Assembly (NCBI GenBank): GCA_031316235.1
Contig: JALDRA010000002.1
Span: 74,066-106,065, forward strand
Direction of reading: 5' to 3'
DNA length: 32,000 nucleotides
Origin: Candidatus Scalindua sp.
GTDB lineage: Bacteria; Planctomycetota; Brocadiia; Brocadiales; Scalinduaceae
Numbering within the stretch: the stretch's first letter is position 1; each line of letters starts with the position of its first letter. Below the pieces are notes generated by a model, which saw only the letters and a list, made by a program, of their open reading frames with translations, did not search any database and was not told the DNA's origin. Below, piece after piece: positions 11,282 through 27,286 of this stretch. The position numbers were made by a program, and so were the translations under genes.

Positions 11282-11462
11282 AGTACACTCCTTATGCAGA
11301 TAATTTTTTAAAATGTAATCGGAATCTCTCTTGCTCCGAATATACGATTAGAACACATTATTACAATATTTCAATAATTATTTCAGATGTTCATAAATCT
11401 CGCGACTTAATATGCCAGGAACAATTAAATCCTTGTATACGAAAACCATTATCTGATGAGTA

Positions 11463-11688
11463 TACATCAAAAAAGAGTCTCTCGCAAAGCCGCAGAGATC
11501 GCAAGGAAGAATGAATGAAAATGAAACAGGCAGGGTTGTGGTTGATGAGTCTATTGTTTCATATAATATTTTACAAAAAGAATTGGATCTCCAATTCAAA
11601 GCTTAATGATTTACGAATAGTAGGAGATACAATAGGTAAACAACTTTCAAGTCTCATAAATTCAATAAAGAAAACAATTACGAAATAA
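11463..11688 (+). pseudogene. chimeric remnant: GxxExxY 5' flank and start joined to the 3' end of a four-helix-bundle gene
   Basis: tacatcaaaaaagagtctctcgcaaagccgcagagatcgcaagg...ggttgtggttgatgagtctattgtttc runs directly into ttttacaaaaagaattggatctccaattcaaagcttaatgatt...acaattacgaaataa, which matches 21476-21595. Confidence 0.7.
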
Positions 11689-11820
11689 CCCTGAACCATC
11701 AGCCATGAGCTATGAGCTATGAGCCATCAGCCATAAGCCATGAACCATCAGCCATCAACCCTGAACCTCTGAACTCAGAACCTTTGAACCTCTAAACGCT
11801 TAACCATGAACCATCAGCCG
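11689..11820 (+). repeat. heptamer tandem array (forward type)
   Basis: ccatgagc, tatgagc, catcagc, cataagc, catgaac, cctgaac and ctctgaac units. Confidence 0.9.
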
Positions 11821-11859
11821 CATTTATTTGCTTTGCGTTCTTCGCGTCTTGGCGTGATA

Positions 11860-11966
11860 TACTAAAAACCAAAGCCCGGCTGCTGGTATCCCCGGACCAG
11901 GCACCGAGGACTTTACTCTCTCCGTTTCTCCTCGGATTTGGTCCGAAAACCATTATAAGATGAGTA
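11860..11966 (-). mobile_element. MITE-A copy (107-bp variant)
   Basis: tactaaaaaccaaagcccggctgctggtatccccggacc...ccgaaaaccattataagatgagta, flanked by TA on both sides. Preceded by the GxxExxY 3' flank tttgctttgcgttcttcgcgtcttggcgtga. Confidence 0.8.
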
Positions 11967-12082
11967 TACTACCCGGATACAAGGCAAGTAACAATTTCAT
12001 ATCTGAAATACACCCATGTACCTGAAGACTGCTGGGTAATTACAGGAACGCAGTAAATGGATAGTTTTCGTTACACTTACTA
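11967..12082 (+). repeat. P-family element, 5'-truncated copy
   Basis: cccggatacaaggcaagtaacaattt...gcagtaaatggatagttttcgttacacttacta. Its last bases contain the TAG stop (12080-12082, minus strand) of the giant gene. Confidence 0.6.
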
Positions 12083-15000
12083 ATTAGCGTCATATAGCAC
12101 TTCATTAGAATAACCACTTTCATTACCGGAACTGTTATAAGCAGTTACTGCAAGGTAATACGTTACGCCGCTTACAAGATCAGACAAGTCATATGTCGTT
12201 TGATTACCCACATCAATAATATCGTCATAATTGCTGCTTGAAATCCCATAGTATACTTTATAACCAGCAATGTCTTCCTCCGTGTTTTCATCCCAGGCAA
12301 GTATATCTGAATTCGTATCTAATACCGTTATCGTTACATCCTGATAATCGGTTAATTCACCATCACTGACAGTGACTGTGACGGTATGGCCACCGGCGTC
12401 TTGAGCAGTTGTTGTGTAAGCACTTGAAGTCATCCAGCCGGAATAGGTATATGTCAGCGGATCATCATCCGGATCTGAGGCTGTGGGATTAAGGGTTATG
12501 GTCACTCCTTCGTTTACTACAATAGAGGGTATTGCGTCAAGTACCGGAGCACGATTTATGTTAGTAACCGTTACTGTAACAGACTGAGAATCCGATGCTG
12601 AACCGTCACTGACCGTTACCGTTACGGTATGATCACCCGCATCATTATAAGAGGTCGTGTAACTTGCAGAAGTCATCCACCCGGAATAGCTGAATGCCAG
12701 CGCATCGCCATCAGGATCTGTTGCCGTAGGATTAAAGGTCACCGTATCACCCTCATTCACCGTGATATTGGTTAATGGATCCAGCACAGGCGCATTGTTC
12801 AATCCAGCCTCTTCCTGCTCTACTATTACAACGGTATACATGCTCTTCCCGGCACCTTCATTACCACCCAGTGTAATCGTCCCTGAAATCACATTACTCG
12901 CATATAAGCTTAAGGTTGTATCCGTTGTTACAAGGTCTTCACCTATGTCAGTATAGGAGGATTCCAACCAGGATGGTTTCGGAGTTATGCGGTCATCATG
13001 AGCAACATACACGATAACGTCCTTATTGACATCAAAACTCAAAAATGATGAAGAGCTGGAGGCCTTGTCGTTGTTTGCCGTCTTGATGTAGGTGACACCT
13101 TCCATCCATACGGGTATTGCACTATAGGTATATCCACGGTCAATGTATACCAATCCACCCTTCTGTAATCCATTTTCAACGATCTCATAGGCCTGGTTAC
13201 TTGAGACAGTAAGGTTGGTAACAGATAGATCTGGTTCTGGTGTTATGTCCACATTGTTGACCGTTACCGTAACAGACTGAGAATCTGATGCTGCTCCGTC
13301 GCTGACGGTTACTGTTACGATATGATCCCCCGCATCATCATAAGAGGTGCCATAACTTGCAGAGGTCATCCACCCGGAATAACTGAAGGTCAATGGGTCT
13401 CCGTCTGGATCGCTGGCTGTCGGGGCAAGAGTTACCGTATCACCCTCATTTACCGTAACAGCCGTAAGATGGGCAAGTACCGGTGCCTGGTTAACATTGT
13501 TGACCGTTACCGTAACAGACTGGGTATCTGATGCTGTCCCGTCACTGACCGTTACCGTCACCGCATGATCACCCGCATCATTATAAGAGGTCGTGTAACT
13601 TGCAGAAGTCATCCACCCGGAATAGCTGAAGGTCAATGGGTCTCCGTCTGGATCGCTGGCTGTCGGGGTAAGGGTTACCGTATCACCTTCATTAACCGTG
13701 ATACCAGCTATATGATCCAATAGAGGAGCGGCATTCACATGAGCCATAACGTCAACTACCGTTATTGTTACGTCCTGAGAATCGATTGAAGCACCATCAC
13801 TTACGGTTACTGTTACTGTGTGAGTTCCTGCATCGTTATAATTAGTTGTATAGCTCCTTGAAGTCATCCAGCCGGAATAACTGAAGGTCAAAGCGTCTCC
13901 ATCTGGATCAGCAGCTGTAGGGGTAAGGGTTACCGTATCACCTTCTTCAACAATTACAACATTTTCCAGATCCTGTGCAACAAAAGATACTTCACCAGAG
14001 TAAATACTTTCATTACCTGATGAATCGTATGCGGTCACTGCCGCATAATAGGTTTCACCACTTATGAGACCAGAAAAGAGACAGTATGTCTGAATTCCAA
14101 CATCAGTATGAGAACCATAATTTCCGCTTGCAGTCCCATAGTAAACTTTATAACCGGCAAGATCCTCTTCATTGTTAGGATCCCAAAACAATGTACCTTG
14201 AATATCTCCGCCAGTTCCAGAAATCGGATTGAGAACAGGTGCACGATTAACATTATTCACCGTTATCGTAACAACCTGGGAATCTGATGCTGTCCCGTCA
14301 CTGACCGTTACTGTCACAGTATGATCACCCGCATCATCATAAGAGGTCGTGTAACTTGCAGAGGTCATCCACCCGGAATAGCTGAAGGTCAGGGTGTCTC
14401 CGTCTGCATCCGTTGCTGTCGGGGCAAGGGTCACCGTATCTCCCTCATTTACCATAACAGGCGAGAGAGTGGAAAGTACCGGTGCCTGGTTAACATTATT
14501 CACCGTTATCGTAACAACCTGGGTATCTGATGCTGTACCGTCACTGACTGTTACGGTCACAGCGTGATCACCCGCATCATCATGAGTTGTTGTGTAACTT
14601 GCAGAGGTCATCCACCCGGAATAGCTGAAGGTCAGGGTGTCTCCGTCTGCATCCGTTGCTGTCGGGGCAAGGGTCACCGTATCTCCCTCATTTACCGTAA
14701 TCCCACTTAATGGATCCAGCACGGGTGCATTGTTCACTTCCGCCACTTCCTGCCCTACTATTACGAAGGTATACATGCTCTTCCCGGAACCTTCATTACC
14801 ACCAAGAGTAATGGTTCCTGAAATCACATTACTCGCATATAAGCTTAAGGTTGTATCCGTTGTTACAAGGTTTTCACCTATGTCGGTAAAGGAGGATTTC
14901 AACCAGGATGGTTTCGGAGTTATGCGGTCATCATGAGCAACATACACGATAACATCCTTATTGACATCAAAACTCAAAAATGATGAAGAGTTTGAAGATT

Positions 15001-15826
15001 TGTCGTTGTTTGCCGTATTGATGTAGGTGGCACCTTCCAGCCATACCGGTATTGCACTATAGGTATATCCACGGTCAATGTATACCAATCCACCATTCTG
15101 TAATCCATTTTCAACGATTTTATAGGCCTTGTTACTTGAGACAGTAAGGTTGGTAACAGAAACATTTGGCACTGGCGTGATGTCCGCATCATTAACCGTT
15201 ATCGTTATACTTTCCGAATCTGTCTCTTTACTGTCACTTACGTGAAAGGTTACATTAGAATATGTTCCTGCCTGACTATAGGTTGGCGTCCATGAAAATG
15301 TTCTGCTGTTTTCATCAAAGCTCGCACCACTGGGGAGATTGCTTGCCGTATAAGCAAGTGTATCTCCTTCTGGATCTGTAGCGGAAATAATCAAGTTTAA
15401 TGCCTGGTTTTCATTAACAGTTTTATTGCCGATCGCTGTTAATACCGGGGGAGAGTTAACTGATGTCAGATCGTTATAAACCACCTCATTAGAGTAAGTG
15501 CTTTCATTACCGGAGAAATCGTATGCCGTTACTGCCAGATAATAATCATTCCCGTCTCCAAGACCCGTAAGTGTGTAACTGGTCTGATTACCAACATCTT
15601 CATGAGAATTATAATTCCCACTTGACGTTCCGTAGTGTACTTTATAACCGGCAAGGTCATCTTCACTGTTTGGGTCCCATAATAACATATCAGCTTGCGC
15701 CGAACACAAATTGGATGTATTGATCAAAATCGCAAGGGTTAGTACGACAAAGGATATGATAGTGGAAATGGAGCAACGAAAATGGAGTGTTCTTGCAAGT
15801 TGCGATAAGACATTTTTTTGTGACAT
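12080..15826 (-). CDS. giant secreted repeat protein (FN3-like plus cadherin/He_PIG-like Ig repeats, adhesin-like)
   Basis: Signal/anchor at the N-terminus. Three FN3-like modules (WDPN.EDDLAGYKV.YG...YY.AVTAYD.SGNES.YS.EV), one He_PIG/cadherin-like module, seven ~83-aa repeats (EGDTVTL.PTA.D.DGD.LTFSYSGWMTS.SYTT..DAGDH.VTVTVSDG) and two ~150-aa modules (DRGYTYSAIPVW.EG.TYI.TANNDK...VIVYVAHDDR). RBS is aggagatactgtc before the ATG. Confidence 0.92.
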   Translation of the reverse strand: MSQKNVLSQLARTLHFRCSISTIISFVVLTLAILINTSNLCSAQADMLLWDPNSEDDLAGYKVHYGTSSGNYNSHEDVGNQTSYTLTGLGDGNDYYLAVTAYDFSGNESTYSNEVVYNDLTSVNSPPVLTAIGNKTVNENQALNLIISATDPEGDTLAYTASNLPSGASFDENSRTFSWTPTYSQAGTYSNVTFHVSDSKETDSESITITVNDADITPVPNVSVTNLTVSSNKAYKIVENGLQNGGLVYIDRGYTYSAIPVWLEGATYINTANNDKSSNSSSFLSFDVNKDVIVYVAHDDRITPKPSWLKSSFTDIGENLVTTDTTLSLYASNVISGTITLGGNEGSGKSMYTFVIVGQEVAEVNNAPVLDPLSGITVNEGDTVTLAPTATDADGDTLTFSYSGWMTSASYTTTHDDAGDHAVTVTVSDGTASDTQVVTITVNNVNQAPVLSTLSPVMVNEGDTVTLAPTATDADGDTLTFSYSGWMTSASYTTSYDDAGDHTVTVTVSDGTASDSQVVTITVNNVNRAPVLNPISGTGGDIQGTLFWDPNNEEDLAGYKVYYGTASGNYGSHTDVGIQTYCLFSGLISGETYYAAVTAYDSSGNESIYSGEVSFVAQDLENVVIVEEGDTVTLTPTAADPDGDALTFSYSGWMTSRSYTTNYNDAGTHTVTVTVSDGASIDSQDVTITVVDVMAHVNAAPLLDHIAGITVNEGDTVTLTPTASDPDGDPLTFSYSGWMTSASYTTSYNDAGDHAVTVTVSDGTASDTQSVTVTVNNVNQAPVLAHLTAVTVNEGDTVTLAPTASDPDGDPLTFSYSGWMTSASYGTSYDDAGDHIVTVTVSDGAASDSQSVTVTVNNVDITPEPDLSVTNLTVSSNQAYEIVENGLQKGGLVYIDRGYTYSAIPVWMEGVTYIKTANNDKASSSSSFLSFDVNKDVIVYVAHDDRITPKPSWLESSYTDIGEDLVTTDTTLSLYASNVISGTITLGGNEGAGKSMYTVVIVEQEEAGLNNAPVLDPLTNITVNEGDTVTFNPTATDPDGDALAFSYSGWMTSASYTTSYNDAGDHTVTVTVSDGSASDSQSVTVTVTNINRAPVLDAIPSIVVNEGVTITLNPTASDPDDDPLTYTYSGWMTSSAYTTTAQDAGGHTVTVTVSDGELTDYQDVTITVLDTNSDILAWDENTEEDIAGYKVYYGISSSNYDDIIDVGNQTTYDLSDLVSGVTYYLAVTAYNSSGNESGYSNEVLYDAN

Positions 15827-16002
15827 GACAGTATCTCCTATTTGTAGCCCAGCAACGACAGGTTAAAGAGATACTGTATTGCCTGGCAGCTTTGCAACCG
15901 TATCCTAAAATAGAGGACGTAGGCCTAAGTTTTGCGTCCTGCCCTTTCGAACAGTTTGCCTTTTTCAGGTTTTTATTAGATTTTTGTTATTTCTCAGTTA
16001 TA

Positions 16003-16139
16003 TACTAACACCAATCTGGTTTTAGATTTTTCTAAAAACCAAAGCCTGGTTAATGGTATCCCCGGACAACCAGGTGCCGAGGACTTTACTCATTCCGTTT
16101 TTTCTCGGATTTTATTTGAAATCCATTATATGACGAGTA
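16003..16139 (-). mobile_element. MITE-A copy (137 bp), flanked by TA/TA
   Basis: tactaacaccaatctggttttag...ggtatccccggacaaccaggtgccgaggactttac...tgacgagta. Confidence 0.8.
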
Positions 16140-16224
16140 TAAATTCGTTTTCATGTCTCGTAGCATAAGTTGTTAACGTTACGCAAATGTAATGCCTCAA
16201 CAAAACTTACCGTGACAAGTATAT

Positions 16225-16375
16225 AATTGTTCTTGAAGAGATACCGTGTGGTGGAACAAAGACTTTCCAGATACAAGGCGCGTAATAATTTGATAACCTG
16301 AAGTTAATCATGTGCTTGAGGATACTGGAATTAATAACGCAGCGCAGTAAATGGATCCTTTTCGTTCAAGCACTA
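16225..16375 (+). repeat. P-family palindromic element, full-length divergent copy
   Basis: ...ccagatacaaggcgcgtaataatttgataacc...gcttgaggatactggaattaataacgcagcgcagtaaatggatccttttcgttcaagcacta aligns with 25805-25953. Confidence 0.65.
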
Positions 16376-16690
16376 TAGAAAACAGCTGATCAAATAAACA
16401 TTTTAACAGCACATTTATTTGTTACTAAATATAGAGGGTAAGTTGATTTTATAAACACCATGATGCTTTATTAGTTATTGCCGCTTGGTTTTTGTCTTAT
16501 AGCGGTAAGAAAATATTTAATGCTTAAAAACTTTGGTTACCTGGTATTATCGTGACAATCCCAAAAATCATTAGCAAGAAAATAACAAACTTCAAGATCA
16601 AAGAGTTCAGCAGTTAACGGATGTTGAAGGATTCAGGATAGAGTTGAATGCTCACAGGATGTGTACGAAAACCATTATCCGATGAGTATA

Positions 16691-16886
16691 AAACTCACAA
16701 TGACATGATTTGTTTCGATATACCCATTGTGAATTACACCGGTAAAAAATAAGTTTTGGGAAAAACTCAATTGCTGGTGCGGGCAGAGTGGTAAACCAGA
16801 GACGTCCCTTCAAACTCTATAGCAGCCGGTAACACAGTCCGTTTTATCAGAAAAATTTAAAAACATTCATTCGCAGATTACACAGA
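16691..16886 (+). repeat. conserved non-coding leader of the four-helix-bundle cassette (copy 1 of 3)
   Basis: aaactcacaatgacatgatttgt...caattgctggtgcgggcagagtggtaaaccagagacgtcccttcaaactctatagcagccgg...cattcattcgcagattacacagag. Paralogous to 20968-21163 and 26231-26426. Confidence 0.8.
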
Positions 16887-16925
16887 GCTCATGGTTGATA
16901 GCTCATAGTTCATAGCTGATGGTTA
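16887..16925 (+). repeat. reverse-type heptamer arm immediately upstream of the cassette ORF
   Basis: gctcatggttgatagctcatagttcatagctgatggtta, identical to 21164-21202 and 26427-26465. Confidence 0.9.
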
Positions 16926-17150
16926 ATGATGGAGAAAATGTGTGAAACAAAGTTTAGTTTTGAAGATTTAGATGTCTGGCAAAAATCTATAGATTTTGCA
17001 GTGAGTGTTATTGGCATTGCAGATACAATGAATTCTGATCGCAATCATTATAGATTGATAGAACAATTAGAATCATCCCCAACATCAATTTCAGCAAATA
17101 TTGCTGAAGGTAAATGGCGTAATTCAATAAAGAAAACAATCACGAAATAA
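16926..17150 (+). pseudogene. four-helix-bundle protein gene with a 168-nt in-frame internal deletion
   Basis: Identical start MMEKMCETKFSFEDLDVWQKSIDFAVSV. The sequence jumps from ...cgtaattc to aataaagaaaac, and aattc is present at both breakpoints in the intact copy. 74 instead of 130 codons. Confidence 0.75.
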
Positions 17151-17401
17151 TTATCAACCATCAGCCATCAACCATAAACTTCTGAAGGCTGAACGCTTAA
17201 ACATAAACCATAAACCATGAGCCCTGAGCCATCAGCCATCAGCCATCAGCCATGAACCATGAGCTTTAATCTTTGAGCCTTTGGCTTTGTTTGTTTTTAT
17301 ACTTTTTAGATTTGACCCATTGCCCTTTCAGCCTTTAACTATGCCATGAGCTATGATCCATCAGCCATCAGCCATGAACCATCAGCCATGAACCATGAAC
17401 C
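17151..17401 (+). repeat. heptamer array with an embedded ~80-nt unique core
   Basis: Forward catcagc/catgaac units on both sides of the core gagctttaatctttgagcctttggctttgtttgtttttatactttttagatttgacccattgccctttcagcctttaacta (17262-17342), which recurs at 29683-29762. Confidence 0.85.
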
Positions 17402-17583
17402 AGGTGCAAAATAACAGGTGGCTGCCTGCTGTCATGACAGTACAACTGGGGCAGAAAACGAGGTTATAAACGATGTAGTTGATACGACAAGTCGCAGTTT
17501 ACAAAACCAGATAGTTGCTGATTTTTCGAAATTGTGCATGATGTTATTTATCCAACTGTTGAGCCTTAAACCTGGCAGCTTGT

Positions 17584-18225
17584 TCACGGTGTTACCATCA
17601 CTGATACCGTGGCCTCATTTGAAGTAGAACCAAAATTGTCACGGACCGTATACCTGAAAGTATCGACACCTGAGTACCCTGATTGAGGAGTGTACGTTAT
17701 CGTACCGTCCCAATTATTTACTAACATACCGTTGGCCGCAAAGCTCAGGATAACTACCGTAAAAGGATCAACATTGCCGTCGTGATCTATGTCATTGGCA
17801 ATAACATTAATGCTGACGGGAGTATCCCCATTTATTGCTATAGAATCGTCAACTGCAATCGGTGGTTGATTCCCAATGATATCGTTTGTATATTGCACCT
17901 CATTAGAGTAAGCACTTTCCCTACTGTAAAAATCATACGCAGTGACAGCAAGGTAATATGTCTCACCAATTGCAAGATCATCAAGCGGGAAACATGTCTG
18001 GGTAAAAACATCTATACCCGTTTCATAATTCCTGCTTGCTTTTCCATAATATACCTTGTAACCGGCAAGGTTCTGAGGAGGTGGAGAGTCCCAGACTAAT
18101 GTTCCTCCAGCTGACAAAATATCAGAATTGCAAAGAGAAATAATTGTTATTAAGAGTATGATATAACAAAAAAACTTTGTTCTCTTAATTGGTAATACAT
18201 CTTTGGTAAGCATTCGCAGGATCAA
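17584..18225 (-). CDS. secreted FN3-like plus cadherin-like domain protein
   Basis: FN3 module WDSPPPQNLAGYKVYYGKASRNYE...YYLAVTAYDFYSRESAYSNEV, then NQPPIAVDDSIAINGDTPVSINVIANDIDHDGN...YTPQSGYSGVDTFRYTVRD. The track start is a TTG, and the ATG at 18213 (MLTKD...) is more likely. Confidence 0.85.
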   Translation of the reverse strand: MILRMLTKDVLPIKRTKFFCYIILLITIISLCNSDILSAGGTLVWDSPPPQNLAGYKVYYGKASRNYETGIDVFTQTCFPLDDLAIGETYYLAVTAYDFYSRESAYSNEVQYTNDIIGNQPPIAVDDSIAINGDTPVSINVIANDIDHDGNVDPFTVVILSFAANGMLVNNWDGTITYTPQSGYSGVDTFRYTVRDNFGSTSNEATVSVMVTP

Positions 18226-18307: not shown

Positions 18308-18360
18308 TACTATCAGCTATCAGCTATGAGCTATGAGCTATTCAGCTACCAGCTATTGAA
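18308..18360 (+). repeat. short heptamer array overlapping the 3' end of the PEP-CTERM gene
   Basis: ctatcagc, tatcagc, tatgagc, tatgagc, tattcagc, taccagc. The last codons of the gene (..SSIAGS*) and its stop are read from this array on the opposite strand. Confidence 0.8.
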
Positions 18361-18989
18361 CTAACGTTTTTATTCATCTTTTTCTTTCTCACAACACCCA
18401 TACCGACTAAACCTGTCAAACCCATTCCGAGAAGTACCAGTGTGGTTGGTTCAGGGACAGGGGGAGTACCGTTCGGGTCAGTGCCGGTGCCGGGATCGGT
18501 GCCGTCTTCCCAATTGAGGCTAAAAATTGACCTGCTCAGCTTAAGATATCCGTCTCCGAGATTTCCATTGGCAGTAATAGATACTGCAAGGGGTGAACCC
18601 GCAGTCCAAGGGTTAAAAATAGAAGGGCTAAGGCTGAAATTAGAAATTGAAGGATTCGAGCTGAAACCAAAACGACTAAAGCTAAAGCCACCACCAGCAT
18701 TTAAGTTCCCCACTGAGCGACCAGAAACTGAAACGATATCATTATAACCATCAACATAATAACCTTCAATACTAAGCGTTGCGCTGTTTACTATATCATA
18801 CGGAACTTCAAAATTCCCAGGGGTTGCATGGGCATAGTTAAAAGTATCGCCATATATCCATTTAGCAATGGGGCCCTCACCAATTTTTATTCCCAAACTT
18901 TGAGTATCAGTAAAAGTTAAAGCACTAACGTTCCTCGCCATTCCAAAAACTAACATCATTACACATAAAAAAAGTAAAGATTTTTTCAT
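18342..18989 (-). CDS. PEP-CTERM sorting-domain protein (putative exosortase substrate)
   Basis: Signal peptide MKKSLLFLCVMMLVFGMARNVSA. C-terminus VPEPTTLVLLGMGLTGLVGMGVVRKKK has the PEP motif, a TM helix and a basic cluster. RBS AAAGGA lies 7 nt upstream. Confidence 0.9.
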   Translation of the reverse strand: MKKSLLFLCVMMLVFGMARNVSALTFTDTQSLGIKIGEGPIAKWIYGDTFNYAHATPGNFEVPYDIVNSATLSIEGYYVDGYNDIVSVSGRSVGNLNAGGGFSFSRFGFSSNPSISNFSLSPSIFNPWTAGSPLAVSITANGNLGDGYLKLSRSIFSLNWEDGTDPGTGTDPNGTPPVPEPTTLVLLGMGLTGLVGMGVVRKKKMNKNVSSIAGS

Positions 18990-19107: not shown

Positions 19108-19123
19108 AGCAATGCACATGCCA
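19108..19123 (-). promoter_or_regulatory. sigma-54 (-24/-12) promoter of the PEP-CTERM gene
   Basis: The minus strand reads TGGCATgtgcaTTGCT. GG and GC are separated by 10 nt as in the TGGCAC-N5-TTGCW consensus. About 120 nt upstream of the ATG at 18989. Confidence 0.75.
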
Positions 19124-19187
19124 TATCACATAACTCATTGTTTTCATGATGGATAGCGTAAGAAATCATAAAGAGAAAATTTCTAAA

Positions 19188-19205
19188 TGTAAAAATCTCT
19201 GACAC
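19188..19205. promoter_or_regulatory. upstream box 1 (TGT-N11-ACA type), candidate enhancer-binding site
   Basis: tgtaaaaatctctgacac, one of three related 18-mers upstream of the sigma-54 promoter. Confidence 0.5.
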
Positions 19206-19320
19206 CAAAACAGCCTTTTTCATAAAGTTTTTTGATAAGATTTTCCCAGGGAGTGCCGTAAGTGTCTATTTTGGCAAGAGTAAGATAAACAGCGTGACAA
19301 ATATGGTATCAAAATAATAG

Positions 19321-19338
19321 TGTAAAATATTCTGACAC
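19321..19338. promoter_or_regulatory. upstream box 2
   Basis: tgtaaaatattctgacac. Confidence 0.5.
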
Positions 19339-19443
19339 ATACTTAAGGGAATTGGGGAGAATTACAGATAAATGACATGCGTGCTTATTGCTAAGTATAT
19401 ACTATAAAGTAGCTTGCGTTATCTTATTATCTCCAGTAGAATA

Positions 19444-19461: not shown

Positions 19462-19462
19462 C

Positions 19463-20330: not shown

Positions 20331-20469
20331 TTAAGAATCCAGGATTACGAGACACACTTTGATGCTCTATTGAAAAAACAACAACTTGCTCCTTTTATAT
20401 AAACATGATTTTCCTGTATAATGCTTCAGGCAGGCAGAAGTTTGAAAATGGCACAGAACATGCATAATA

Positions 20470-20600
20470 TATTAAAACCGATTTAGTTTTTTCTAAAAAC
20501 CAACGCCTGGTTGCTGGTATCCCCGGACAAAAAACGCCGAGGACTTGTACTCGCTCCGTTTTTTCCCGGATTTTATCCGAAAACCATTATAAGATGGGTA
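20470..20600 (-). mobile_element. MITE-A copy (131 bp)
   Basis: tattaaaaccgatttagttttttctaaaaaccaacgcctggttgctggtatccccggacaaaaaacgccgaggac...ccgaaaaccattataagatgggta, flanked by TA/TA. Confidence 0.8.
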
Positions 20601-20744
20601 TACATCAAAAAAAAGTTTCTCGCAAAGCCGCAGGGTTCGCCAGGAAAAATGACAGAAAATGAAATAGGCAAGGTTGTGGTTGATGAGTCTATTGTTTTAG
20701 AGGAAAGTTTTTATGCTTTGCGTTCTTCGCGTCTTGGCGTGATA
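20601..20744 (+). pseudogene. GxxExxY-family gene remnant (5' flank, first ~19 codons and 3' flank)
   Basis: tacatcaaaaaaaagtttctcgcaaagccgcagggttcgccaggaaaaATGacagaaaatgaaataggcaaggttgtggttgatgag (MTENEIGKVVVDESIVL) is joined directly to ttttatgctttgcgttcttcgcgtcttggcgtga. Confidence 0.65.
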
Positions 20745-20824
20745 TACTAAAAGCAAAGTCTGGTTGCTGGTACACTCATTCAGTTTTTCTCGGATTTTGT
20801 CCGAAAACCATTATAAGATGTGTA
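20745..20824 (-). mobile_element. MITE-A copy (80-bp internally deleted variant)
   Basis: tactaaaagcaaagtctggttgctggtacactcattcagtttttctcggattttgtccgaaaaccattataagatgtgta. Near-identical copies lie at 21660-21739 and 26009-26088. Confidence 0.75.
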
Positions 20825-20856
20825 TATTTAAGATCCTGCGTAAAAAAAAACAGGTA

Positions 20857-20965
20857 TACTAAAACCGATTTGGTTGTCGGTTTTACCGGAAACAAAATCT
20901 TGGTTAATGGTATGCTCGCTCAATTTTATCTCGGATTTTATCCGAAAACCCTTATGAGATGAGTA
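20857..20965 (-). mobile_element. MITE-A copy (109-bp variant)
   Basis: tactaaaaccgatttggttgtcggttttaccggaaacaaaatcttggttaatggtatgctcgctc...gagatgagta, flanked by TA/TA. Confidence 0.8.
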
Positions 20966-20967
20966 TA

Positions 20968-21163
20968 AAACTCACAATGACATGATTTGTATCGATATAC
21001 CGATTGGGAACTCTCCCTGTAATCAATACGTTTGGGGCGAAACTCAATTGCTGGTGCAGGCAGAGTGGTAAATCAGAGACGTCCCTTCAAACTCTATAGC
21101 AGCCGGTAACACAGACCGTTTTATCAGAAAAATTTAAAAACATTCATACGCAGATTGCACAGA
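20968..21163 (+). repeat. conserved non-coding leader of the four-helix-bundle cassette (copy 2 of 3)
   Basis: By eye about 7 mismatches in about 200 nt versus 26231-26426. Confidence 0.85.
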
Positions 21164-21202
21164 GCTCATGGTTGATAGCTCATAGTTCATAGCTGATGGT
21201 TA
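21164..21202 (+). repeat. reverse-type heptamer arm (left arm of the cassette stem)
   Basis: gctcatggttgatagctcatagttcatagctgatggtta, ending one base before the ATG. Confidence 0.9.
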
Positions 21203-21595
21203 ATGATGGAGAAAATGTGTGAAACAAAGTTTAGTTTTGAAGATTTAGATGTCTGGCAAAAATCTATAGATTTTGCAGTGAGTGTTATTGGCATTGCAGA
21301 TACAATGAATTCTGATCGCAATCATTATAGATTGATAGAACAATTAGAATCATCCGCAACATCAATTTCAGCAAATATAGCTGAAGGGAAAGGACGTAAT
21401 TCCAAAAAAGAATTCATCCAATATCTATATATTGCACGTGGCGCACTATTTGAAACAATTACTTTTTTAACTATATTTTACAAAAAGAATTGGATATCCA
21501 ATTCAAAGCTTAATGATTTACGAATAGTAGGAGATACAATAGGTAAACAACTTTCAAGTCTCATAAATTCAATAAAGAAAACAATTACGAAATAA
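21203..21595 (+). CDS. four-helix-bundle protein (23S rRNA intervening-sequence protein / Avd family), intact copy
   Basis: 130 aa. FEDLDVWQKSIDFAVSV...HYRLIEQLESSATSISANIAEGKGRNSKKEFIQYLYIARGALFET is the characteristic pattern of this family. Confidence 0.88.
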   Translation: MMEKMCETKFSFEDLDVWQKSIDFAVSVIGIADTMNSDRNHYRLIEQLESSATSISANIAEGKGRNSKKEFIQYLYIARGALFETITFLTIFYKKNWISNSKLNDLRIVGDTIGKQLSSLINSIKKTITK

Positions 21596-21649
21596 CCATA
21601 AGCCATGAGCTATGAGCCATCAGCCATCAGCCATCAGCCATCAGCTATG
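21596..21649 (+). repeat. forward heptamer array (right arm of the cassette stem)
   Basis: ccataagccatgagctatgagccatcagccatcagccatcagccatcagctatg. Together with the TAA stop it is complementary to 21164-21202. Confidence 0.9.
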
Positions 21650-21659
21650 TGGCGTGATA

Positions 21660-21739
21660 TACTAAAAGCAAAGTCTGGTTGCTGGTACACTCATTCAGTT
21701 TTTCTCGGATTTTATCCGAAAACCATTATGAGATGAGTA
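21660..21739 (-). mobile_element. MITE-A copy (80-bp variant) 31 nt upstream of prsK
   Basis: tactaaaagcaaagtctggttgctggtacactcattcag...ccgaaaaccattatgagatgagta, flanked by TA/TA. Confidence 0.8.
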
Positions 21740-21769
21740 TATATTAACCGGACACTACTGTATATAAAG

Positions 21770-23935
21770 GTGACGAAAAATGAACATTTTATTGAAACCG
21801 ATATGCTTATCAGATTAATTTCAACAATCCCCATCATCAATGCGTGCTTGTGTCTTGGGCTAGGCGTGTTTACGCTCTCACGAAATCCGAAACGTACATC
21901 GAATATCGGATTCTTCCTGGGAATGCTCAGCCTTGCCATCCTCAACGCAGGAGATGCTACCCTGCTTTTGGGCGGGAACTCATACAGGATGGCTTTTAAT
22001 GGTATGAGACTCTCAATTGTGGGACAGTCTCTTTTACCTCCATCTCTCCTTCTTTTCTCAGTTGTATTTGCACGGAAAGAGCACAGGGCCGCTCTCATCC
22101 GCTGGCTGCCCCTCCTCGTGATAACGGCAGCAGCCTCGTTTGTATTTATATACTTTCTTATAACAAACGTGTTTGTTACCATTTCTCTTTTTAACCTGGC
22201 CGGAGACAAGGGCAGCTCTTTATACCTGGATGATACGCGGCTCATATTCGGCCCCATTGGTTACTACTTTTATATCTATTTTATTATTGGAACACTTTTA
22301 TGCCTCACAAACCTGGAAAGCACCTTCCGTTCGTCAAAAGGGATAAACCGTTTTCAGATAAAGTATGTTATTTTCTGCTTAGGGGGCATTCTCTTCTTTT
22401 TTATCTATCTTGCAAGCCAGATCTTACTCTTTTCAAATATAAGTATTCAGTTGATCCCTGCAAAATCACTAGTAACATTGATTTGTACCGTAATTATGAC
22501 ATTTTCAATTGTAAAACAGAGACTTTTAGATGTTGACATTTTTGTCTCCAGATATGTCGTATACAATTCAGTTGCTATTATCGGGACATGCACGTATCTT
22601 CTGGTGTTAGGAGTTGCTGTTGAGGCAATAAAGTTTTACCACCTCCCCTTTCATTATTTTATTAAAATACTCCTGATCTTTGTCTCGCTGTTTATTCTTG
22701 TTATTCTCCTCTTTGTCTCAGGACTTAGAAGAAAAATCCAGCTTTTTATTAACCGACATTTTTACAAGCACAAGTATGAGTTTCGAGATACATGGATGGA
22801 GACAATCGTAAGGATAAGTTCAAGAAACTCGATTGATGATATCTGTAACACCTTATTAGAAATGATTTCTCAACTGATGGGCGCTCAAAATGTAACTGTA
22901 TGGCTCTATAATTCAGCCAAACAGAAGTATACTGTTTTTCTGATGAATGACAAAAACGAAAAAAATAGTATTGGAGAAGGGCATGCCCTCATTGGAATCA
23001 TGAGAGAAAAGGGAGCCCCCTTTATCGTAAATGAACACTACGGCCGGCTATCTGGCAAACCAGATGGTGTAAAAGAAATTGAGGCAGTTATGAACTCAAC
23101 GAAAGCAGTGTTATGTTCACCAATGGAAGCAGCAGGTGAGCTTGTCGGCTTTATTCTCCAGGGAGAAGATATAGGAGGAGAATCCTACAGGGTTGATGAT
23201 TTTGAATTACTAAAGGCGCTCTCAACCCAGGCTGCTGTTCAGATAAAGAATATCCGTCTGGCTCAAGAACTCTCTACCGCAAAAGAGGTGGAGATGTTTC
23301 ATTGGTTGTCGTCCTTCGTGATGCATGACCTGAAAAATCTGACCAATTCACTATCTCTTATCACCCAGAATGCCCGGCATAACCTCGGCAATATCGAGTT
23401 CCAGAAAGATTCGGTCAAGACAATTGAATCCACCGTTAACAGGATGCAGGGATTAATTGATAGACTCTCTTCCTTACCCCGGGGGATAGAGCTGAAACGC
23501 GAATCAGTGGATCTGAAAACCATAGTCGAACATGTTCTTCAACAAGTAAAGCGTGACAAGAGAAAAAACATTTCCCTTGAAACAGAAATAGATAAAACCC
23601 CAATTGCCAGTATTGATCCTCACGCAATTGAAATGGTAATGATGAATCTTATTAATAACGCCTGTGATGCCATTGAAAGTGAAGGAAAGGTAGAATGCGG
23701 AATATGGGAAGAGAACAACGTTATCAAGGTGTCAGTGACCGATAATGGAAAGGGGATTTCCGATGCATTTATTGATACTTTTTTATTTAAACCTTTTAAA
23801 TCATCCAAAAAAGGTGGATTTGGAGTAGGACTTTTTCAATGTAAAGCCATTGTAGAGGCTCACAACGGAAGGATAGAGGTTAAAAGTAAGGAAGGGGTGG
23901 GCACAACTTTTACCATCAGTTTGCCTCATGGTTAG
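21770..23935 (+). CDS. prsK: PEP-CTERM-system sensor histidine kinase (PrsK type)
   Basis: N-terminal half with at least 8 hydrophobic segments and a central GAF-like region. H-box SFVMHDLKNLTNSL, N-box MNLINNACDA, G1 DNGKGI, G2 GGFGVGL. Immediately upstream of prsR. The start is a GTG at 21770 or the ATG at 21803. Confidence 0.85.
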   Translation: MTKNEHFIETDMLIRLISTIPIINACLCLGLGVFTLSRNPKRTSNIGFFLGMLSLAILNAGDATLLLGGNSYRMAFNGMRLSIVGQSLLPPSLLLFSVVFARKEHRAALIRWLPLLVITAAASFVFIYFLITNVFVTISLFNLAGDKGSSLYLDDTRLIFGPIGYYFYIYFIIGTLLCLTNLESTFRSSKGINRFQIKYVIFCLGGILFFFIYLASQILLFSNISIQLIPAKSLVTLICTVIMTFSIVKQRLLDVDIFVSRYVVYNSVAIIGTCTYLLVLGVAVEAIKFYHLPFHYFIKILLIFVSLFILVILLFVSGLRRKIQLFINRHFYKHKYEFRDTWMETIVRISSRNSIDDICNTLLEMISQLMGAQNVTVWLYNSAKQKYTVFLMNDKNEKNSIGEGHALIGIMREKGAPFIVNEHYGRLSGKPDGVKEIEAVMNSTKAVLCSPMEAAGELVGFILQGEDIGGESYRVDDFELLKALSTQAAVQIKNIRLAQELSTAKEVEMFHWLSSFVMHDLKNLTNSLSLITQNARHNLGNIEFQKDSVKTIESTVNRMQGLIDRLSSLPRGIELKRESVDLKTIVEHVLQQVKRDKRKNISLETEIDKTPIASIDPHAIEMVMMNLINNACDAIESEGKVECGIWEENNVIKVSVTDNGKGISDAFIDTFLFKPFKSSKKGGFGVGLFQCKAIVEAHNGRIEVKSKEGVGTTFTISLPHG

Positions 23936-24029
23936 ACGAAAAGATAAGCATCAGTAACTTTTTGTTACCATGGATCATTTATATACCCCGCAAGCCGCAA
24001 AGCTATTTAGAAAGTTATACGAAATTTGT

Positions 24030-24096
24030 CATTATCGTTTTTTTTACTTTTCCTTTGCGATCCCTGCGGCTTTGCGAGAAACTATTTTTTGATGTA
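24030..24096 (-). pseudogene. GxxExxY cassette 5'-flank remnant
   Basis: The reverse complement reads tacatcaaaaaatagtttctcgcaaagccgcagggatcgcaaaggaaaag... A solo MITE-A end follows at 24097-24122. Confidence 0.5.
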
Positions 24097-24186
24097 TACT
24101 CATCAGATAATGGCTTTCGGATATCAACGATAGACAGACCGGATCTGCCGAAGTATTTACGCCTTCGTTAAGGCACATTAATTAAT

Positions 24187-24245: not shown

Positions 24246-25595
24246 ATGGAAAAATCTAAAATCCTTGTCATAGAAGATGATGATGGGATCAGGACCCAGA
24301 TGAAATGGGCCCTGAATAAAGAGTACGATGTTTTGCTTGCCCCGAACACGAAAGAAGCTGTCAATATAATGGCCCGGTGTTCACCTCCTCTTGTTACCCT
24401 GGATCTTGGCCTTCCTCCTGACCCTGAAGGAACAGATGAAGGGTTTCGGCTCCTGCAGGAGATATTGAATATCTCCCCCTTCACAAAAGTCATTGTTGTA
24501 ACCGGGAACCCGGATAAAGAGGCACCTTTGCGCGCGGTATCAATGGGGGCTCATGATTTTTTTACAAAGCCGATTAATCTTGAGGAACTTAAATCTGTTG
24601 TAAAGAGAGCAGATTATGTCCAGGGACTCGAGAGTGAGCACAAGTCTCTGCAGGCGCAGCTGGGAGCCGATTCTTCCCCTGATATTATTGGTACCAGCAG
24701 TGAGATGGAGGATATATTTACTGCTATCCGAAAAGTATCCACAACTGATGTCCCCGTCCTCATAACAGGTGAAAGCGGTACCGGGAAGGAACTGGTTGCA
24801 AGGGCCATACATTTACAAGGCCAGAGGAAAAGAGGCCCCTTCATTCCCATCAACTGTGGGGCAATTCCGGAAAAGTTAATGGAGAGTGAACTTTTTGGTC
24901 ATGAAAAAGGTGCATATACCGGGGCACATGTACAAAGGAAGGGAAAGCTTGAACTGGCAGACAATGGAACGGTGTTTCTTGATGAAATTGGAGACCTCCC
25001 ATTACCGTTACAGGTTAAGCTGTTGAGAGTTCTCCAGGATCACAAACTTGAAAGAATTGGCGGTAGAGAGATGATTGATCTGGAAGTCAGGTTTCTTGCT
25101 GCAACAAATAAAGACCTGGAAGAGCTGGTCAGAAATGGAGAGTTCAGAGAAGATCTTTATTACCGGCTTGCTGTTGTGTCGATTAAAGTCCCTGCTCTTC
25201 GTAAAAGAGGTGAGGATGCCCTCATACTGGCAAAGAGTTTTTTAAAGAAATATGGAAAAACAAACAAAAAACCCATGAGACTGGGTGAAGATGCTGTCCA
25301 GGCAATAAAAAAGTACTCATGGCCGGGTAATGTAAGAGAACTTGAGAACAAGATCCAGCGGGCAATTGCTTTTACCGAAGGAGGGCAGATATCCGCCTCA
25401 GATCTTGGCCTTACTCCCTCCACAAATGAATTTTCATTGAATCTTAAAACAGCGAAAGAGCGTTTAGAGACGGATTACATTAAAATGGCTCTGGTCAAGT
25501 GTGGCGGCAATATCAGCCACGCAGCTCAGGAAATGGGTATCTCAAGGCCGACGCTTCATGGGCTTATGAAAAAATACCGTATCGAGACAAAATAG
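24246..25595 (+). CDS. prsR: PEP-CTERM-box response regulator, sigma-54-dependent transcriptional activator (PrsR type)
   Basis: Receiver domain [19 protein letters not shown]...[18 protein letters not shown]...[11 protein letters not shown]+ domain with GESGTGKE, the sigma-54 contact loop GAYTGA, and RED/R-finger. C-terminal Fis-type [28 protein letters not shown]. Confidence 0.93.
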
Positions 25596-25689
25596 CTGAA
25601 GAACTTTAATGTAAAATAATTGCAGAAACAAAGCCGGAGGGGTCACCTATTTGCTATTTGTTTTACTGAAAACCATTGTCAGACAAGTA

Positions 25690-26008
25690 TATATCAAAAA
25701 ATAGTTTCTCGCAAAGCCGCAGAGATCGCAAAGAAGAATGACAGAAAATGAAATAGGCAATGTTGTGGTTGATGAGTCTATTGTTTTACAGGAAAAGATG
25801 TATATAGTGCCTGAACAGAAACCCTGTGGTTGAACGAAAACGGCCCAGATACAAGGTGCGTAATAATTTTGTAACCGAAACTTACTAAAGCACTTGAGGA
25901 TTAAGAAATTATTACAGCAACACAGTAGATGGGTAGTTTTCGTTCAACTACTATATAAAAGATTTTAAATGTTTTTATGCTTTGCGTTCTTCGCGTCTTC
26001 GCGTGATA
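25690..26008 (+). pseudogene. GxxExxY-family gene remnant split by a P-element insertion
   Basis: tatatcaaaaaatagtttctcgcaaagccgcagagatcgcaaagaagaATGacagaaaatgaaataggcaatgttgtggttgatgag... then the P element, then aaaagattttaaatgtttttatgctttgcgttcttcgcgtcttcgcgtga. Confidence 0.65.
25805..25953 (+). mobile_element. P-family palindromic element (~149 bp), reference full copy
   Basis: Ends tagtgcctgaacagaaacc and ggtagttttcgttcaactacta are inverted. The internal arms gcgtaataatt/aattattacagc are also inverted. Flanked by TA, with an uninterrupted paralogous site in 8223-8379. Confidence 0.7.
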
Positions 26009-26088
26009 TACTAAAAGCAAAGTCTGGTTGCTGGTACACTCATTCAGTTTTTCTCGGATTTTGTCCGAAAACCATTATAAGATGTGTA
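26009..26088 (-). mobile_element. MITE-A copy (80-bp variant)
   Basis: Paralogue of 20745-20824. Confidence 0.75.
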
Positions 26089-26119
26089 TATTTAAGATCC
26101 TGCGTAAAAAAAACAGGTA

Positions 26120-26228
26120 TACTAAAACCGATTTGGTTTTCGGTTTTACCGGAAACAAAATCTTGGTTAATGGTATGCTCGCTCAGTTTTATCTCGGACT
26201 TTATCCGAAAACCATTATGTGATGAGTA
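26120..26228 (-). mobile_element. MITE-A copy (109-bp variant)
   Basis: Paralogue of 20857-20965. Confidence 0.8.
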
Positions 26229-26230
26229 TA

Positions 26231-26426
26231 AAACTCACAATGACATGATTTGTATCGATATACCCATTGGGAACTCTCCCTGTAATCAATACGTTTTGGG
26301 CGAAACTCAATTGCTGGTGCAGGCAGAGTGGTAAATCAGAGACGTCCCTTCAAACTCAATAGCAGCGGGTAACACAGACCGTTTTATCAGAAATATTTAA
26401 AAACATTCATTCGCAGATTGCACTGA
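26231..26426 (+). repeat. conserved non-coding leader of the four-helix-bundle cassette (copy 3 of 3)
   Basis: See 20968-21163. Confidence 0.85.
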
Positions 26427-26465
26427 GCTCATGGTTGATAGCTCATAGTTCATAGCTGATGGTTA
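26427..26465 (+). repeat. reverse-type heptamer arm
   Basis: Identical to 21164-21202. Confidence 0.9.
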
Positions 26466-26996
26466 ATGATGGAGAAAATGTGTGAAACAAATTTTAGTTT
26501 TGAAGATTTAGATGTCTGGCAAAAATCTATAGATTTTGCAGTGAGTGTTATTGACATTGCAGATACAATGAATTCTGATCGCAATAATTATAGATTGATA
26601 GAACAATTAGAATCATCCGCAACATCAATTTCAGCAAATATACTCATTTCATAATAGTTTTCGGATAAAATCCGAGTAAAAACGGAGCGAGTAAAGTCCT
26701 CGGCGCTTTTTGTCCGGGGATAACTGCAACCAAGATTTGTTTTTCAGAAAAACCGAAAACCAAATCGGTTTTAGTATATTGCTGAAGGGAAAGGACGTAA
26801 TTCCAAAAAAGAATTCATCCAATATCTATATATTGCACGTGGCTCACTATTTGAAACAATTACTTTTTTAACTATATTTTACAAAAAGAATTGGATCTCC
26901 AATTCAAAGCTTAATGATTTACGAATAGTAGGAGATACAATAGGTAAACAACTTTCAAGTCTCATAAATTCAATAAAGAAAACAATTACGAAATAA
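26466..26996 (+). pseudogene. four-helix-bundle protein gene disrupted by a MITE-A insertion
   Basis: Reads as the intact copy up to ...tcagcaaata, resumes at ttgctgaagggaaaggacg, and ends at the same acgaaataa stop. The 136-bp insert plus 2-bp duplication introduces a stop (ORF 26466-26654). Confidence 0.9.
26641..26776 (+). mobile_element. MITE-A copy inserted in the four-helix-bundle gene, with TA target-site duplication
   Basis: gcaaaTA[tactcatttcataatagttttcgg...caaatcggttttagta]TAttgctgaagg, compared with the uninterrupted gcaaatattgctgaagg at 17095-17111. Confidence 0.92.
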
Positions 26997-27140
26997 CCAT
27001 GAGCCATAAGCCACGAGCTATTAGCTATGAACCATCCGCCATGAGCAATGAGCAATGAGCTATTAGCAATGAACCATAAGCCATCAACCCAGAACCTCTG
27101 AACGCTGAACCATCAGCTATGAGCTATCAGCCATGAGCCA
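26997..27140 (+). repeat. forward heptamer array
   Basis: ccatgagc, cataagc, cacgagc, tattagc, tatgaac, ... ccagaac, ctctgaac. Confidence 0.9.
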
Positions 27141-27179
27141 CATTTATTTGCTTTGCGTTCTTAGCGTCTTGGCGTGATA

Positions 27180-27286
27180 TACAAAAATCAAAGCCTGTTT
27201 GCAGTTATCCCCGGACAAATGGCACCGAGGACTTTACTCGCTCTGTTTGTTCCCGGAGTTTTCTAAAAACCATTACATGATAAGTA
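27180..27286 (-). mobile_element. MITE-A copy (107-bp variant) 61 nt upstream of the sugar-transferase ORF
   Basis: tacaaaaatcaaagcctgtttgcagttatccccggacaaatggcaccgaggactttac...cattacatgataagta. Preceded by the GxxExxY 3' flank, as at 11821-11859. Confidence 0.75.

Follow-up and report, generated by a model that had tools for sequence, protein, structure and literature searches.

Why does one and the same composite repeat stand between successive gene modules of a surface-polysaccharide locus, and did it help to assemble these modules or did it settle in the gaps between them at a later time? The question is raised by a 32,000-nt stretch of Candidatus Scalindua sp. (contig JALDRA010000002.1, positions 74,066 to 106,065), which is called the window here and whose own numbering is used throughout. 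The part of the window between 11.4 and 29.9 kb is a PEP-CTERM-type adhesin and exopolysaccharide (EPS) island, and its spacers hold a nested stack of selfish elements. At the core of the stack lies a short open reading frame (ORF) between two complementary arrays of heptamers, and these arms and the ORF together make up a single unit, built like an intervening sequence (IVS) of 23S rRNA. We consider it probable that the repeats are late-arriving, block-duplicated and decaying stacks of small selfish elements around this IVS-like cassette, and not the footprint of module assembly.

The cassette at the core of the repeats

The ORF of copy C (Table 1) belongs to a family named "23S rRNA intervening sequence protein", with 103.7 bits against TIGR02436 (cut-off 24) and 100.5 bits against PF05635 (cut-off 33.8), and its product matches the pentameric four-helix bundle of PDB entry 2gsc by sequence (E = 2e-11). 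The upstream arm consists of five heptamers (CTCATGG/CTCATAG/CTGATGG), the last of which ends 3 nt before the ATG, and the downstream arm, (CCATGAG/CTATGAG/CCATCAG)n, begins directly after the stop codon and is the reverse complement of the upstream one. The minimum-free-energy (MFE) fold of positions 21150-21660 is closed by the two arms, which form a stem of ~38 bp (-127.7 kcal/mol, z = -4.85, with 0 of 100 shuffles equally good), and the flanks of copy C share 36 cross-flank base pairs, where the control median is 6. The initial annotation of this DNA had listed arms and ORF as separate parts and missed that they make up a single IVS-like unit.

Between genera, purifying selection has acted on the protein: the Scalindua ORF (window 21203-21595) and its Kuenenia homologue (L022 4010-4387) are 84.7% identical in nucleotides and 84% in amino acids, with dS 0.70 and dN/dS 0.12. 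By comparison, prsK is only 82% identical between two Scalindua species, although the cassette ORF reaches its 84.7% between Scalindua and Kuenenia; uncalibrated as it is against genome-wide divergence, this high identity hints at a possible horizontal transfer between anammox genera or at an unusual constraint. Neither the leader in front of the arm nor the palindromic element described below gave an Rfam match, a scan of copy C for promoter- and terminator-like sites returned chance level only, and the leader was not found upstream of the homologues in Kuenenia and in a Scalindua-like contig (L030).

Architecture and habitat of the family

Relatives of the ORF were sought in a scan of metagenome contigs, which gave 80 loci with 36-79% identity. 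The inverted complementarity of the flanks was scored by aligning locally the 100 nt upstream with the reverse-complemented 100 nt downstream, and the median score was 22 in 45 loci vs. 9 in 168 control ORFs taken from the same loci (Mann-Whitney p = 7e-21), with 38 of the 45 above the 95th percentile of the controls. MFE folds taken over 80 nt, the ORF and another 80 nt gave the same picture, as the median number of cross-flank pairs was 28.5 (48 loci) vs. 6 in 141 random windows of equal length (p = 1.6e-15). The heptamer unit itself changes with the lineage (AGCTGAA/AGCTCAA in many loci; GAGAGCA, GTTAACC, GGTGACT, GGTTTCT and GCTCGTG in others; CTCATGG/CTGATGG as the anammox type), and whatever the heptamer, the downstream arm complements the upstream arm in each lineage, i.e., the arms covary at the level of whole arrays. 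Arms of the anammox type are also found on the Kuenenia homologue and on two other paralogues (85% and 79%).

One pair of loci gives a clean contrast of an occupied and an empty site. In Kuenenia (L022 3899-4479; CP049055, at 3.08 Mb), a 581-nt insert made of arm, ORF and arm separates the gene of a glycosyltransferase from that of an epimerase, whereas in a relative (L111 3455-3535) the same two genes (78.5% and 76.4% identical) overlap by ATGA and carry no heptamers. It follows that the arms arrive together with the ORF.

In all 20 loci with long flanks the called neighbours lie on the strand of the cassette (on both sides in 17, upstream only in 3), and the gaps to them are mostly about 20-200 nt. 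All ten neighbours tested against Pfam have glycan-synthesis or sugar-modifying domains (epimerases/dehydratases, DegT aminotransferase, family-2 glycosyltransferase, Wzy_C, flippase, carbamoyltransferase and GFO/IDH/MocA oxidoreductase), and some others, read by eye without a hidden Markov model (HMM), resemble fatty-acid or housekeeping genes. The Kuenenia copy and L118 are within glycosyltransferase operons, and L119 has a Wzz/GNVR gene on one side and a TPR gene on the other in a PEP-CTERM-type EPS locus; the two close paralogues found in such glycan or PEP-CTERM-type EPS operons carry the same arms. Since polysaccharide operons are the usual habitat of the relatives, the presence of cassettes in an EPS island is typical for the family.

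No rRNA was found in the window or in 20 related short loci, and every copy has protein-coding genes on both sides. At two metagenome loci that are unrelated (L060 5010-5475 and L061), the cassette with its arms is directly beside a tRNA gene. The same gene family is also known within cas operons (PMC3936711) and in rRNA insertions of the candidate phyla radiation (PMC11270868). No open-access paper was found that describes complementary heptamer arrays around family members outside rRNA, although subscription papers or curator notes may do so.

A more general idea, which we regard as possible but rather doubtful at this stage, is that S23p/Avd-like genes with complementary heptamer arrays are widespread autonomous "operon intervening sequences" of the same kind as the ORF-bearing 23S IVS. 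If this were true, such elements would sit mostly inside protein-coding operons, especially in polysaccharide loci, the stem would allow the host to cut them out of the RNA or to insulate them there, the encoded pentamer would aid their maintenance or spread, and the rRNA IVS would be a special case of a far larger undescribed family of mobile cassettes.

Colinearity and orientation of the copies

Self-BLAST of the window and a repeat finder were used to compare the copies, the coordinates of which are collected in Table 1. Copies C and D match over 20571-20706 and 25661-25795 (88%), over 20704-21379 and 25968-26642 (97.3% over 676 nt) and over 21375-21664 and 26776-27065 (92.4% over 290 nt); copies B and C match over 16666-17134 and 20943-21412 (93.8%), and copies A and D over 11566-11968 and 26874-27288 (83.7% over 418 aligned positions). 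The copies are therefore colinear direct repeats that go beyond shared short motifs of heptamers and MITEs (miniature transposable elements with inverted repeats), as had been claimed in the initial annotation, and its order of parts (remnant, MITEs, leader, arm, ORF, array, flank, MITE) is present in copies C and D. Its estimate by eye of about seven leader mismatches between C and D was exact, since the gap-free alignment of leader and ORF holds 13 mismatches in 631 positions, of which 7 are in the leader, and the content of the gene modules between the copies also agrees with the results of our HMM scans. Its further claim, that blocks were copied after the MITEs had landed, stands as well, because the colinear units of ~1.1-1.6 kb carry MITEs at common positions. 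Constant orientation, in turn, holds for the ORF-bearing copies, which are all on the plus strand, and fails for the two partial pieces on the minus strand (Table 1) and for MITE-A, which occurs on both strands.

A replication-strand cause of the constant orientation was considered and dropped, as the same orientation in 4/4 or 5/5 copies is non-significant (two-sided p = 0.125 or 0.06) and MITE-A and the partial pieces are on both strands.

Table 1. Coordinates of the composite repeats, their parts and the surrounding genes in the window.
Feature	Position	Strand	Remark
Partial composite (remnant + MITE-A), inverted	8212-8579	-	Housekeeping spacer; present in sister strain too
Copy A, truncated	11433-11968	+	Refined limits; contains MITE-A 3' end piece
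Copy A, 5' remnant	11465-11559		
Copy A, deletion junction	11559/11566		
Copy A, ORF 3' third	11566-11688		
Copy A, downstream heptamer array	11689-11819		
Copy A, "..GGCGTGA" flank + MITE-A	11820-11968		
Big_9/PKD/cadherin/FN3 adhesin	12080-15826	-	1248 aa; HMM scan
c-di-GMP-I riboswitch RF01051	15882-15970	-	62.3 bits (gathering score 35); adhesin 5' leader
MITE-A	16001-16141		In front of copy B
MITE-B, palindromic	16207-16382		In front of copy B
Copy B	16652-17407	+	Refined limits; contains MITE-A 3' end piece and leader
Copy B, upstream arm	16888-16922		
Copy B, ORF	16926-17150		
Copy B, downstream arrays	17153-17407		With ~90-nt spacer
FN3-cadherin protein	17584-18225	-	HMM scan
PEP-CTERM protein	18342-18989	-	HMM scan
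MITE-A, full length	20466-20602	+	Directly left of copy C; alignment
Copy C	20571-21747	+	Refined limits
Copy C, 5' remnant of putative GxxExxY gene	20603-20706	+	5' untranslated region (UTR) + ~20 codons (MTENEIGKVVVDESIV...); label without HMM support
Copy C, "..TTTGCGTTCTTCGCGTCTTGGCGTGA" flank fused to 5'-collapsed MITE-A	20708-20826	+	
Copy C, MITE-A, 115-nt deletion variant	20853-20967	+	Adjoins leader
Copy C, leader	20968-21164	+	~195 nt; lineage-specific
Copy C, upstream heptamer arm	21165-21199	+	Pairs with downstream arm in MFE fold
Copy C, four-helix-bundle ORF, intact	21203-21595	+	130 aa; TIGR02436/PF05635
Copy C, downstream heptamer arm	21596-21649	+	Reverse complement of upstream arm
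Copy C, right end (truncated flank + collapsed MITE-A)	21650-21747	+	22 nt before first possible prsK start (GTG 21770)
prsK, XrtA/PEP-CTERM histidine kinase	21770-23935	+	TIGR02916, 408.3 bits (cut-off 300); bracketed by repeats, outside repeat
5' remnant, inverted	24026-24131	-	Inside prsK-prsR spacer
prsR, sigma-54-dependent PEP-CTERM-box response regulator	24246-25595	+	TIGR02915, 579.1 bits (cut-off 502.6); bracketed by repeats
Copy D	25661-27290	+	Refined limits; order as in copy C, plus MITE-B
Copy D, MITE-B	25796-25967		~170 nt, palindromic
Copy D, ORF, first piece	26466-26642		
Copy D, MITE-A, inverted	26643-26775		Splits ORF
Copy D, ORF, second piece	26776-26996		
Copy D, downstream array	26997-27140		Longer array
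Copy D, flank + full MITE-A	27141-27290		
Polyprenyl glycosylphosphotransferases	27347-29309	+	HMM scan
Fifth copy (E), without ORF	29322-29936	+	Repeat finder, self-BLAST; MITE-A 3' end piece, 5' UTR of remnant, heptamer and 22-nt-period arrays

Decay of the copies and the elements around the cassette

Only copy C, one of the four ORF-bearing copies, has kept an intact ORF. In copy A a deletion, the junction of which shows microhomology and filler, has left codons ~80-130; in copy B 170 nt are gone internally, between two AATTC repeats; and in copy D the ORF is split by the inverted MITE-A. The downstream array varies from 7 to about 20 units among the copies. The spacer of the fifth copy (29622-29785) is 89% identical to that of copy B (17203-17366), and in copy C the segment of flank and collapsed MITE-A on the left of the leader recurs at the right end of the unit (95.9%), so that direct repeats of ~98 nt bracket the ORF module. 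The ages of the parts are unequal, as identity is 85-92% between the 5' remnants but, for leader and ORF, 98-99% within the set of A, C and D and ~93% for B.

Copies B and E also hold CTTTGAG/CTTTCAG-like units in their spacer, i.e., the arm type of other lineages. Apart from the copies with an ORF, the window has other tandem arrays (7215-7400, 18310-18337 and 29410-29564), all with the C-rich strand on plus; they include 7/8-nt units of the GAACC type with a 22-nt super-period, and one of them is located between two convergent housekeeping genes. These outlying arrays may be relics of cassettes or a separate class of repeat.

MITE-A has a consensus of ~143 nt, the ends of which are imperfect inverted repeats (TATACT...GGTTTTCGG / CCGAAAACC...AGTATA), and at least 14 copies or fragments of it, in both orientations, are present in 32 kb; our alignment comprised 14 copies, one of which came from another Scalindua species (L001). 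Its variants are a 115-nt deletion form and a 5'-collapsed form which is always fused to the "..GGCGTGA" flank. The insertion into the ORF of copy D took place at a TATA site for which copy C is the empty site, and the length of the duplication is ambiguous. MITE-A thus has the features of a MITE, being short, non-coding and present in many copies, with inverted repeats at its ends and a duplicated target site. A second element, MITE-B (~115-175 nt), lies at 11968-12082, 16207-16382 and 25796-25967 and in the sister strain (L021 10712-10822); its arms are GTTGAACGAAAAC...GTTTTCGTTCAAC, its copies are 70-75% alike, and it has no match in Rfam.

The 5' remnants (31-34 aa, ~20 codons of the gene) had no Pfam or NCBIfam match at E <= 10, and of the 8 occurrences of the 5' motif that the window and the sister strain contain, none is more than a remnant. 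Their 3'-flank motif CTTTGCG..GCGTGA also flanks intact ORFs with a GxxExxY motif in L030, which has a cassette too. The label "GxxExxY" (TIGR04256/PF13366) for the remnants is plausible but unproven. In L030 (1493-2130), an intact ORF with the GxxExxY motif has a direct repeat of ~60 nt on each side (CTTTGCG..GCGTGAGAAAATTCC..GTGATTTAGTGGC), and this small gene family, too, may move as a cassette with repeats at its borders.

Late arrival of the repeats

The closest comparison is offered by a sister strain (L021, ENA ERZ25039603 contig_25323, an independent assembly), which is 95.9-97.3% identical to the window in the housekeeping genes left of the island. At the site of copy A this strain has one full composite, in orthologous position and with matching unique flanks, and its ORF is intact, with leader and ORF 98.7% identical to copy C. 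Therefore, copy A of the window is a deletion derivative of a full unit. In the sister strain the composite's leader is interrupted, after ~27 nt, by a 2.45-kb element (7340-9790) that codes for a DruA/DDE_5 protein of 687 aa, no copy is present at the orthologous spacer of copy B, and the gene content departs from that of the window after the cadherin gene. The terminal inverted repeats of the DruA/DDE_5 element are AATAGCACTACAGCGAC.

The same strain bears on the possibility that the repeats are an artefact of a metagenome-assembled genome (MAG), i.e., collapsed or chimeric repeats placed several times. The source is indeed a MAG contig, and repeat-rich regions are error-prone; the copies, however, differ by 1-7% and in distinct indels, MITE insertions and deletions, and related cassettes with these arms recur in many further assemblies as well as in Kuenenia genomes that are complete. 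Since the independent assembly agrees with the window at the site of copy A, we reject this explanation, which we take to be extremely improbable.

In a more distant Scalindua (L001, prsK and prsR 82-83% identical in nucleotides) the order of adhesin, PEP-CTERM gene, prsK and prsR is kept, and its 22 kb hold neither a composite nor a four-helix-bundle ORF, with only a MITE-A between prsK and prsR. Two other contigs (L028 and L029) retain prsK and prsR beside other genes, again without the composite, and the nearest relatives of PrsK on record reach no more than 83% identity and stand in other contexts. As the composite is missing from these three relatives, the repeats are later arrivals in existing intergenic gaps. 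They are also young, with leader and ORF of A, C, D and the sister strain 98-99% alike vs. 96-97% for the orthologous flanks between the strains.

These data have to be set against the proposal of the initial annotation that the direct repeats are recombination modules, through which prsK and prsR or other modules are excised, amplified or shuffled, or that they are scars of a cassette-wise assembly of the island. The directly oriented blocks of copies C and D, which are 97-98% identical, contain stretches of 113, 103 and 67 nt without a single mismatch, and this is more than enough for RecA-dependent recombination, and deletion or amplification of prsK and prsR is thus possible. The content of the island does differ between strains that are 96-97% identical elsewhere, so the claimed structural variability is real, and paralogous copies are closer to each other than the orthologous DNA of the two strains, which could mean ongoing gene conversion. 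Nevertheless, although the repeats are feasible substrates, no product of such recombination was seen: the resolved differences are the microhomology/filler deletion in A, the AATTC deletion in the ORF of B, the MITE insertion in D and the insertion-sequence (IS) element in the sister strain, and not one of them has a junction between two copies. Assembly through the repeats fails on the module order of L001 and on prsK and prsR of L028 and L029, all of which are found without the composite. Additionally, no transposase, integrase or reverse transcriptase is encoded among the ORFs of the window that were scanned (all of at least 150 aa and several shorter ones), and the exact PrsK of the window is on one contig only, with no alternative contig on record. 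Exact look-ups gave no record of the 130-aa ORF or of the protein at 1722-3011, and for the sugar transferase a 1-kb contig only. We therefore regard recombination modules or assembly scars as an unlikely explanation.

Proposed mechanism

The favoured explanation, that of late-arriving and decaying stacks of selfish elements, could work as follows. In the transcript, the stem between the arms would loop out the whole ORF, and it would be processed or structurally isolated, probably by RNase III by analogy with the rRNA elements, so that such processing or insulation would make the cassette cheap within operons and spacers. The cassette became embedded in the leader, copies of MITE-A and relics of the putative GxxExxY gene, and blocks of this stack were copied recently to several spacers of the island, probably by recombination, segmental duplication or gene conversion rather than by transposition, a spread perhaps seeded by the MITE-A ends that bound the blocks. 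After copying, the copies decayed until one intact ORF of four was left. It is likewise probable, in our opinion, that the punctuation of the locus reflects junk tolerated between transcription units and not the building or regulation of modules.

A different view of the punctuation is that the cassette is a functional accessory of glycan and EPS loci, whose protein and/or stem regulates or insulates transcription units, e.g., as processing sites, terminators, mRNA stabilisers or length-variable heptamer switches, in which case the units here would be regulatory punctuation. The co-orientation of the family within polysaccharide operons, the purifying selection on the protein, the exact abutment of the arms on start and stop codons, the variable length of the downstream array, and the position of intact copy C directly upstream of prsK on the same strand are all in favour of such a role. 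Yet only one of the four ORFs here has escaped destruction, two copies run antisense to the adjacent genes, relatives have the same loci without the cassette, and the unit shows no enrichment of promoter- or terminator-like sites. The presence of the family in rRNA, in cas operons and beside genes that look by eye like fatty-acid or housekeeping genes also suggests tolerance and not a role specific to glycans. It seems quite improbable to us that the cassette is a functional accessory in general, or regulatory punctuation in any of these forms.

Several points nonetheless weigh against selfish stacks as the explanation of the repeats. The block ends fall on the 3' ends of MITE-A, so movement assisted by the MITEs or recombination between them could be involved, and the ages of the parts (85-92% vs. 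98-99%) fit gene conversion or repeated re-insertion no less well than a simple duplication of blocks. In copies A and B the cassette runs opposite to the adjacent genes, a departure from the norm of the family, and given the purifying selection the intact copy may have a host function. RNase III processing and a role at the RNA level are presumed here from the rRNA elements. Finally, the comparison loci were picked by similarity to the protein of the window and cover one branch of PF05635, and the comparison with the sister strain covers 20 kb of a 69-kb contig, in which the prsK-prsR region was not found.

Genes of the island

The adjacent prsK and prsR genes form a PrsK-PrsR pair, as both score above the equivalog cut-offs (Table 1). 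The riboswitch stretch in front of the adhesin gene is kept in L001 (5807-5900, 86%) and lies inside the block aligned to the sister strain; the adhesin is probably under the control of cyclic di-GMP (c-di-GMP), unrelated to the composites. The adhesin has internal repeats of ~243 nt and ~1 kb (Big_9/PKD units, 64-93% alike). Compared with L021 10820-13983, where two ORFs are called, it differs in length and has an identity of 80-92%, and the number of its repeats appears to differ between strains.

Two matches to the sigma-54 -24/-12 consensus, with one mismatch each, were found at 19108-19123 (minus strand) and 20449-20464 (plus strand), which is no more than chance, since at least two were obtained in 18 of 100 shuffles. 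The first precedes the PEP-CTERM gene by 119 nt, within a segment (19109-19404) conserved with L001 9540-9832, and may be a promoter that depends on PrsR.

A MITE-A (28204-28319) interrupts the first of the priming sugar transferases. The ORF at 27347-28189 holds its N-terminal region and the beginning of the Bac_transf domain, and the ORF at 28341-29309 holds the rest of the split Bac_transf and then, in frame, a second complete one (two matched stretches).

Comparison with known systems

Like integron cassettes and composite transposons, the locus has small promoter-less ORF units at many sites and direct repeats that bracket genes. An integron cassette array or composite transposon was rejected, as the scanned ORFs of the window (all of at least 150 aa and several shorter ones) include no integrase, there is no single 3' site of the attC type, and neither a transposase nor an IS marks the ends of the blocks; the only transposase met is the insertion inside the copy of the sister strain. 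The repeats resemble MITE clusters in the inverted ends of MITE-A, its deletion variants, its occurrence in both orientations and one datable insertion (ORF of copy D). Unlike a MITE, the unit of 1.1-1.6 kb has an ORF, lacks terminal inverted repeats of its own, and is present in colinear copies with several MITEs each.

Avd is the homologous pentameric four-helix-bundle protein of diversity-generating retroelements, and the ORF of the window matches the related structure 2gsc by sequence; we know of no Avd genes that are bracketed by heptamer arrays. A diversity-generating retroelement was also rejected for the locus, since no reverse transcriptase is among the scanned ORFs and the repeats are copies of whole blocks and not pairs of template and variable repeats. 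Intergenic 7-nt tandem repeats that are strand-biased and often abut start codons are known as short tandemly repeated repetitive (STRR) sequences of cyanobacteria and as the TAACTGA repeats of Beggiatoaceae, but the arrays described here are complementary pairs around one gene family and travel with it.

The closest known system is the S23p IVS of the Leptospira, Coxiella and Xanthomonas type. In the 23S IVS of Coxiella, the S23p ORF follows 2-3 tandem heptamers (GACAGAT), the number of which is strain-variable, a terminal stem of 28 bp is cut by RNase III at the first repeat, and the ORF is decaying; the IVS was described as a selfish element (PMC4990558). The cassette shares with this type the PF05635/TIGR02436 protein, heptamers before the ATG, a stem that encloses the ORF, decay of the ORF and a variable number of heptamers. 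It differs from it in that it lies in spacers and operons of protein genes, mostly in glycan loci, and not in a helix of 23S or 16S rRNA, that it has whole heptamer arrays on both sides, that it is embedded here in a larger duplicated block, and that its excision by RNase III would be by analogy. Because it lies outside rRNA, the cassette is a variant of the ORF-bearing 23S IVS and not a member of it.

At the level of this locus, the punctuation of the EPS/adhesin island would then be recent selfish debris of an ordinary kind, and the repeats only potential substrates of recombination. More widely, members of the family outside rRNA have the design of stem plus heptamers, their arms co-vary, and arms and ORF arrive together at seamless gene junctions, so the nature and movement of IVS elements become testable in ordinary operons, e.g., in Kuenenia, which grows in enrichment culture and whose genome is complete, and annotators gain a way to recognise cassettes and their ORF-less relics. 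What is most worth pursuing is this family-wide stem-and-heptamer architecture with its seamless insertion into operons.

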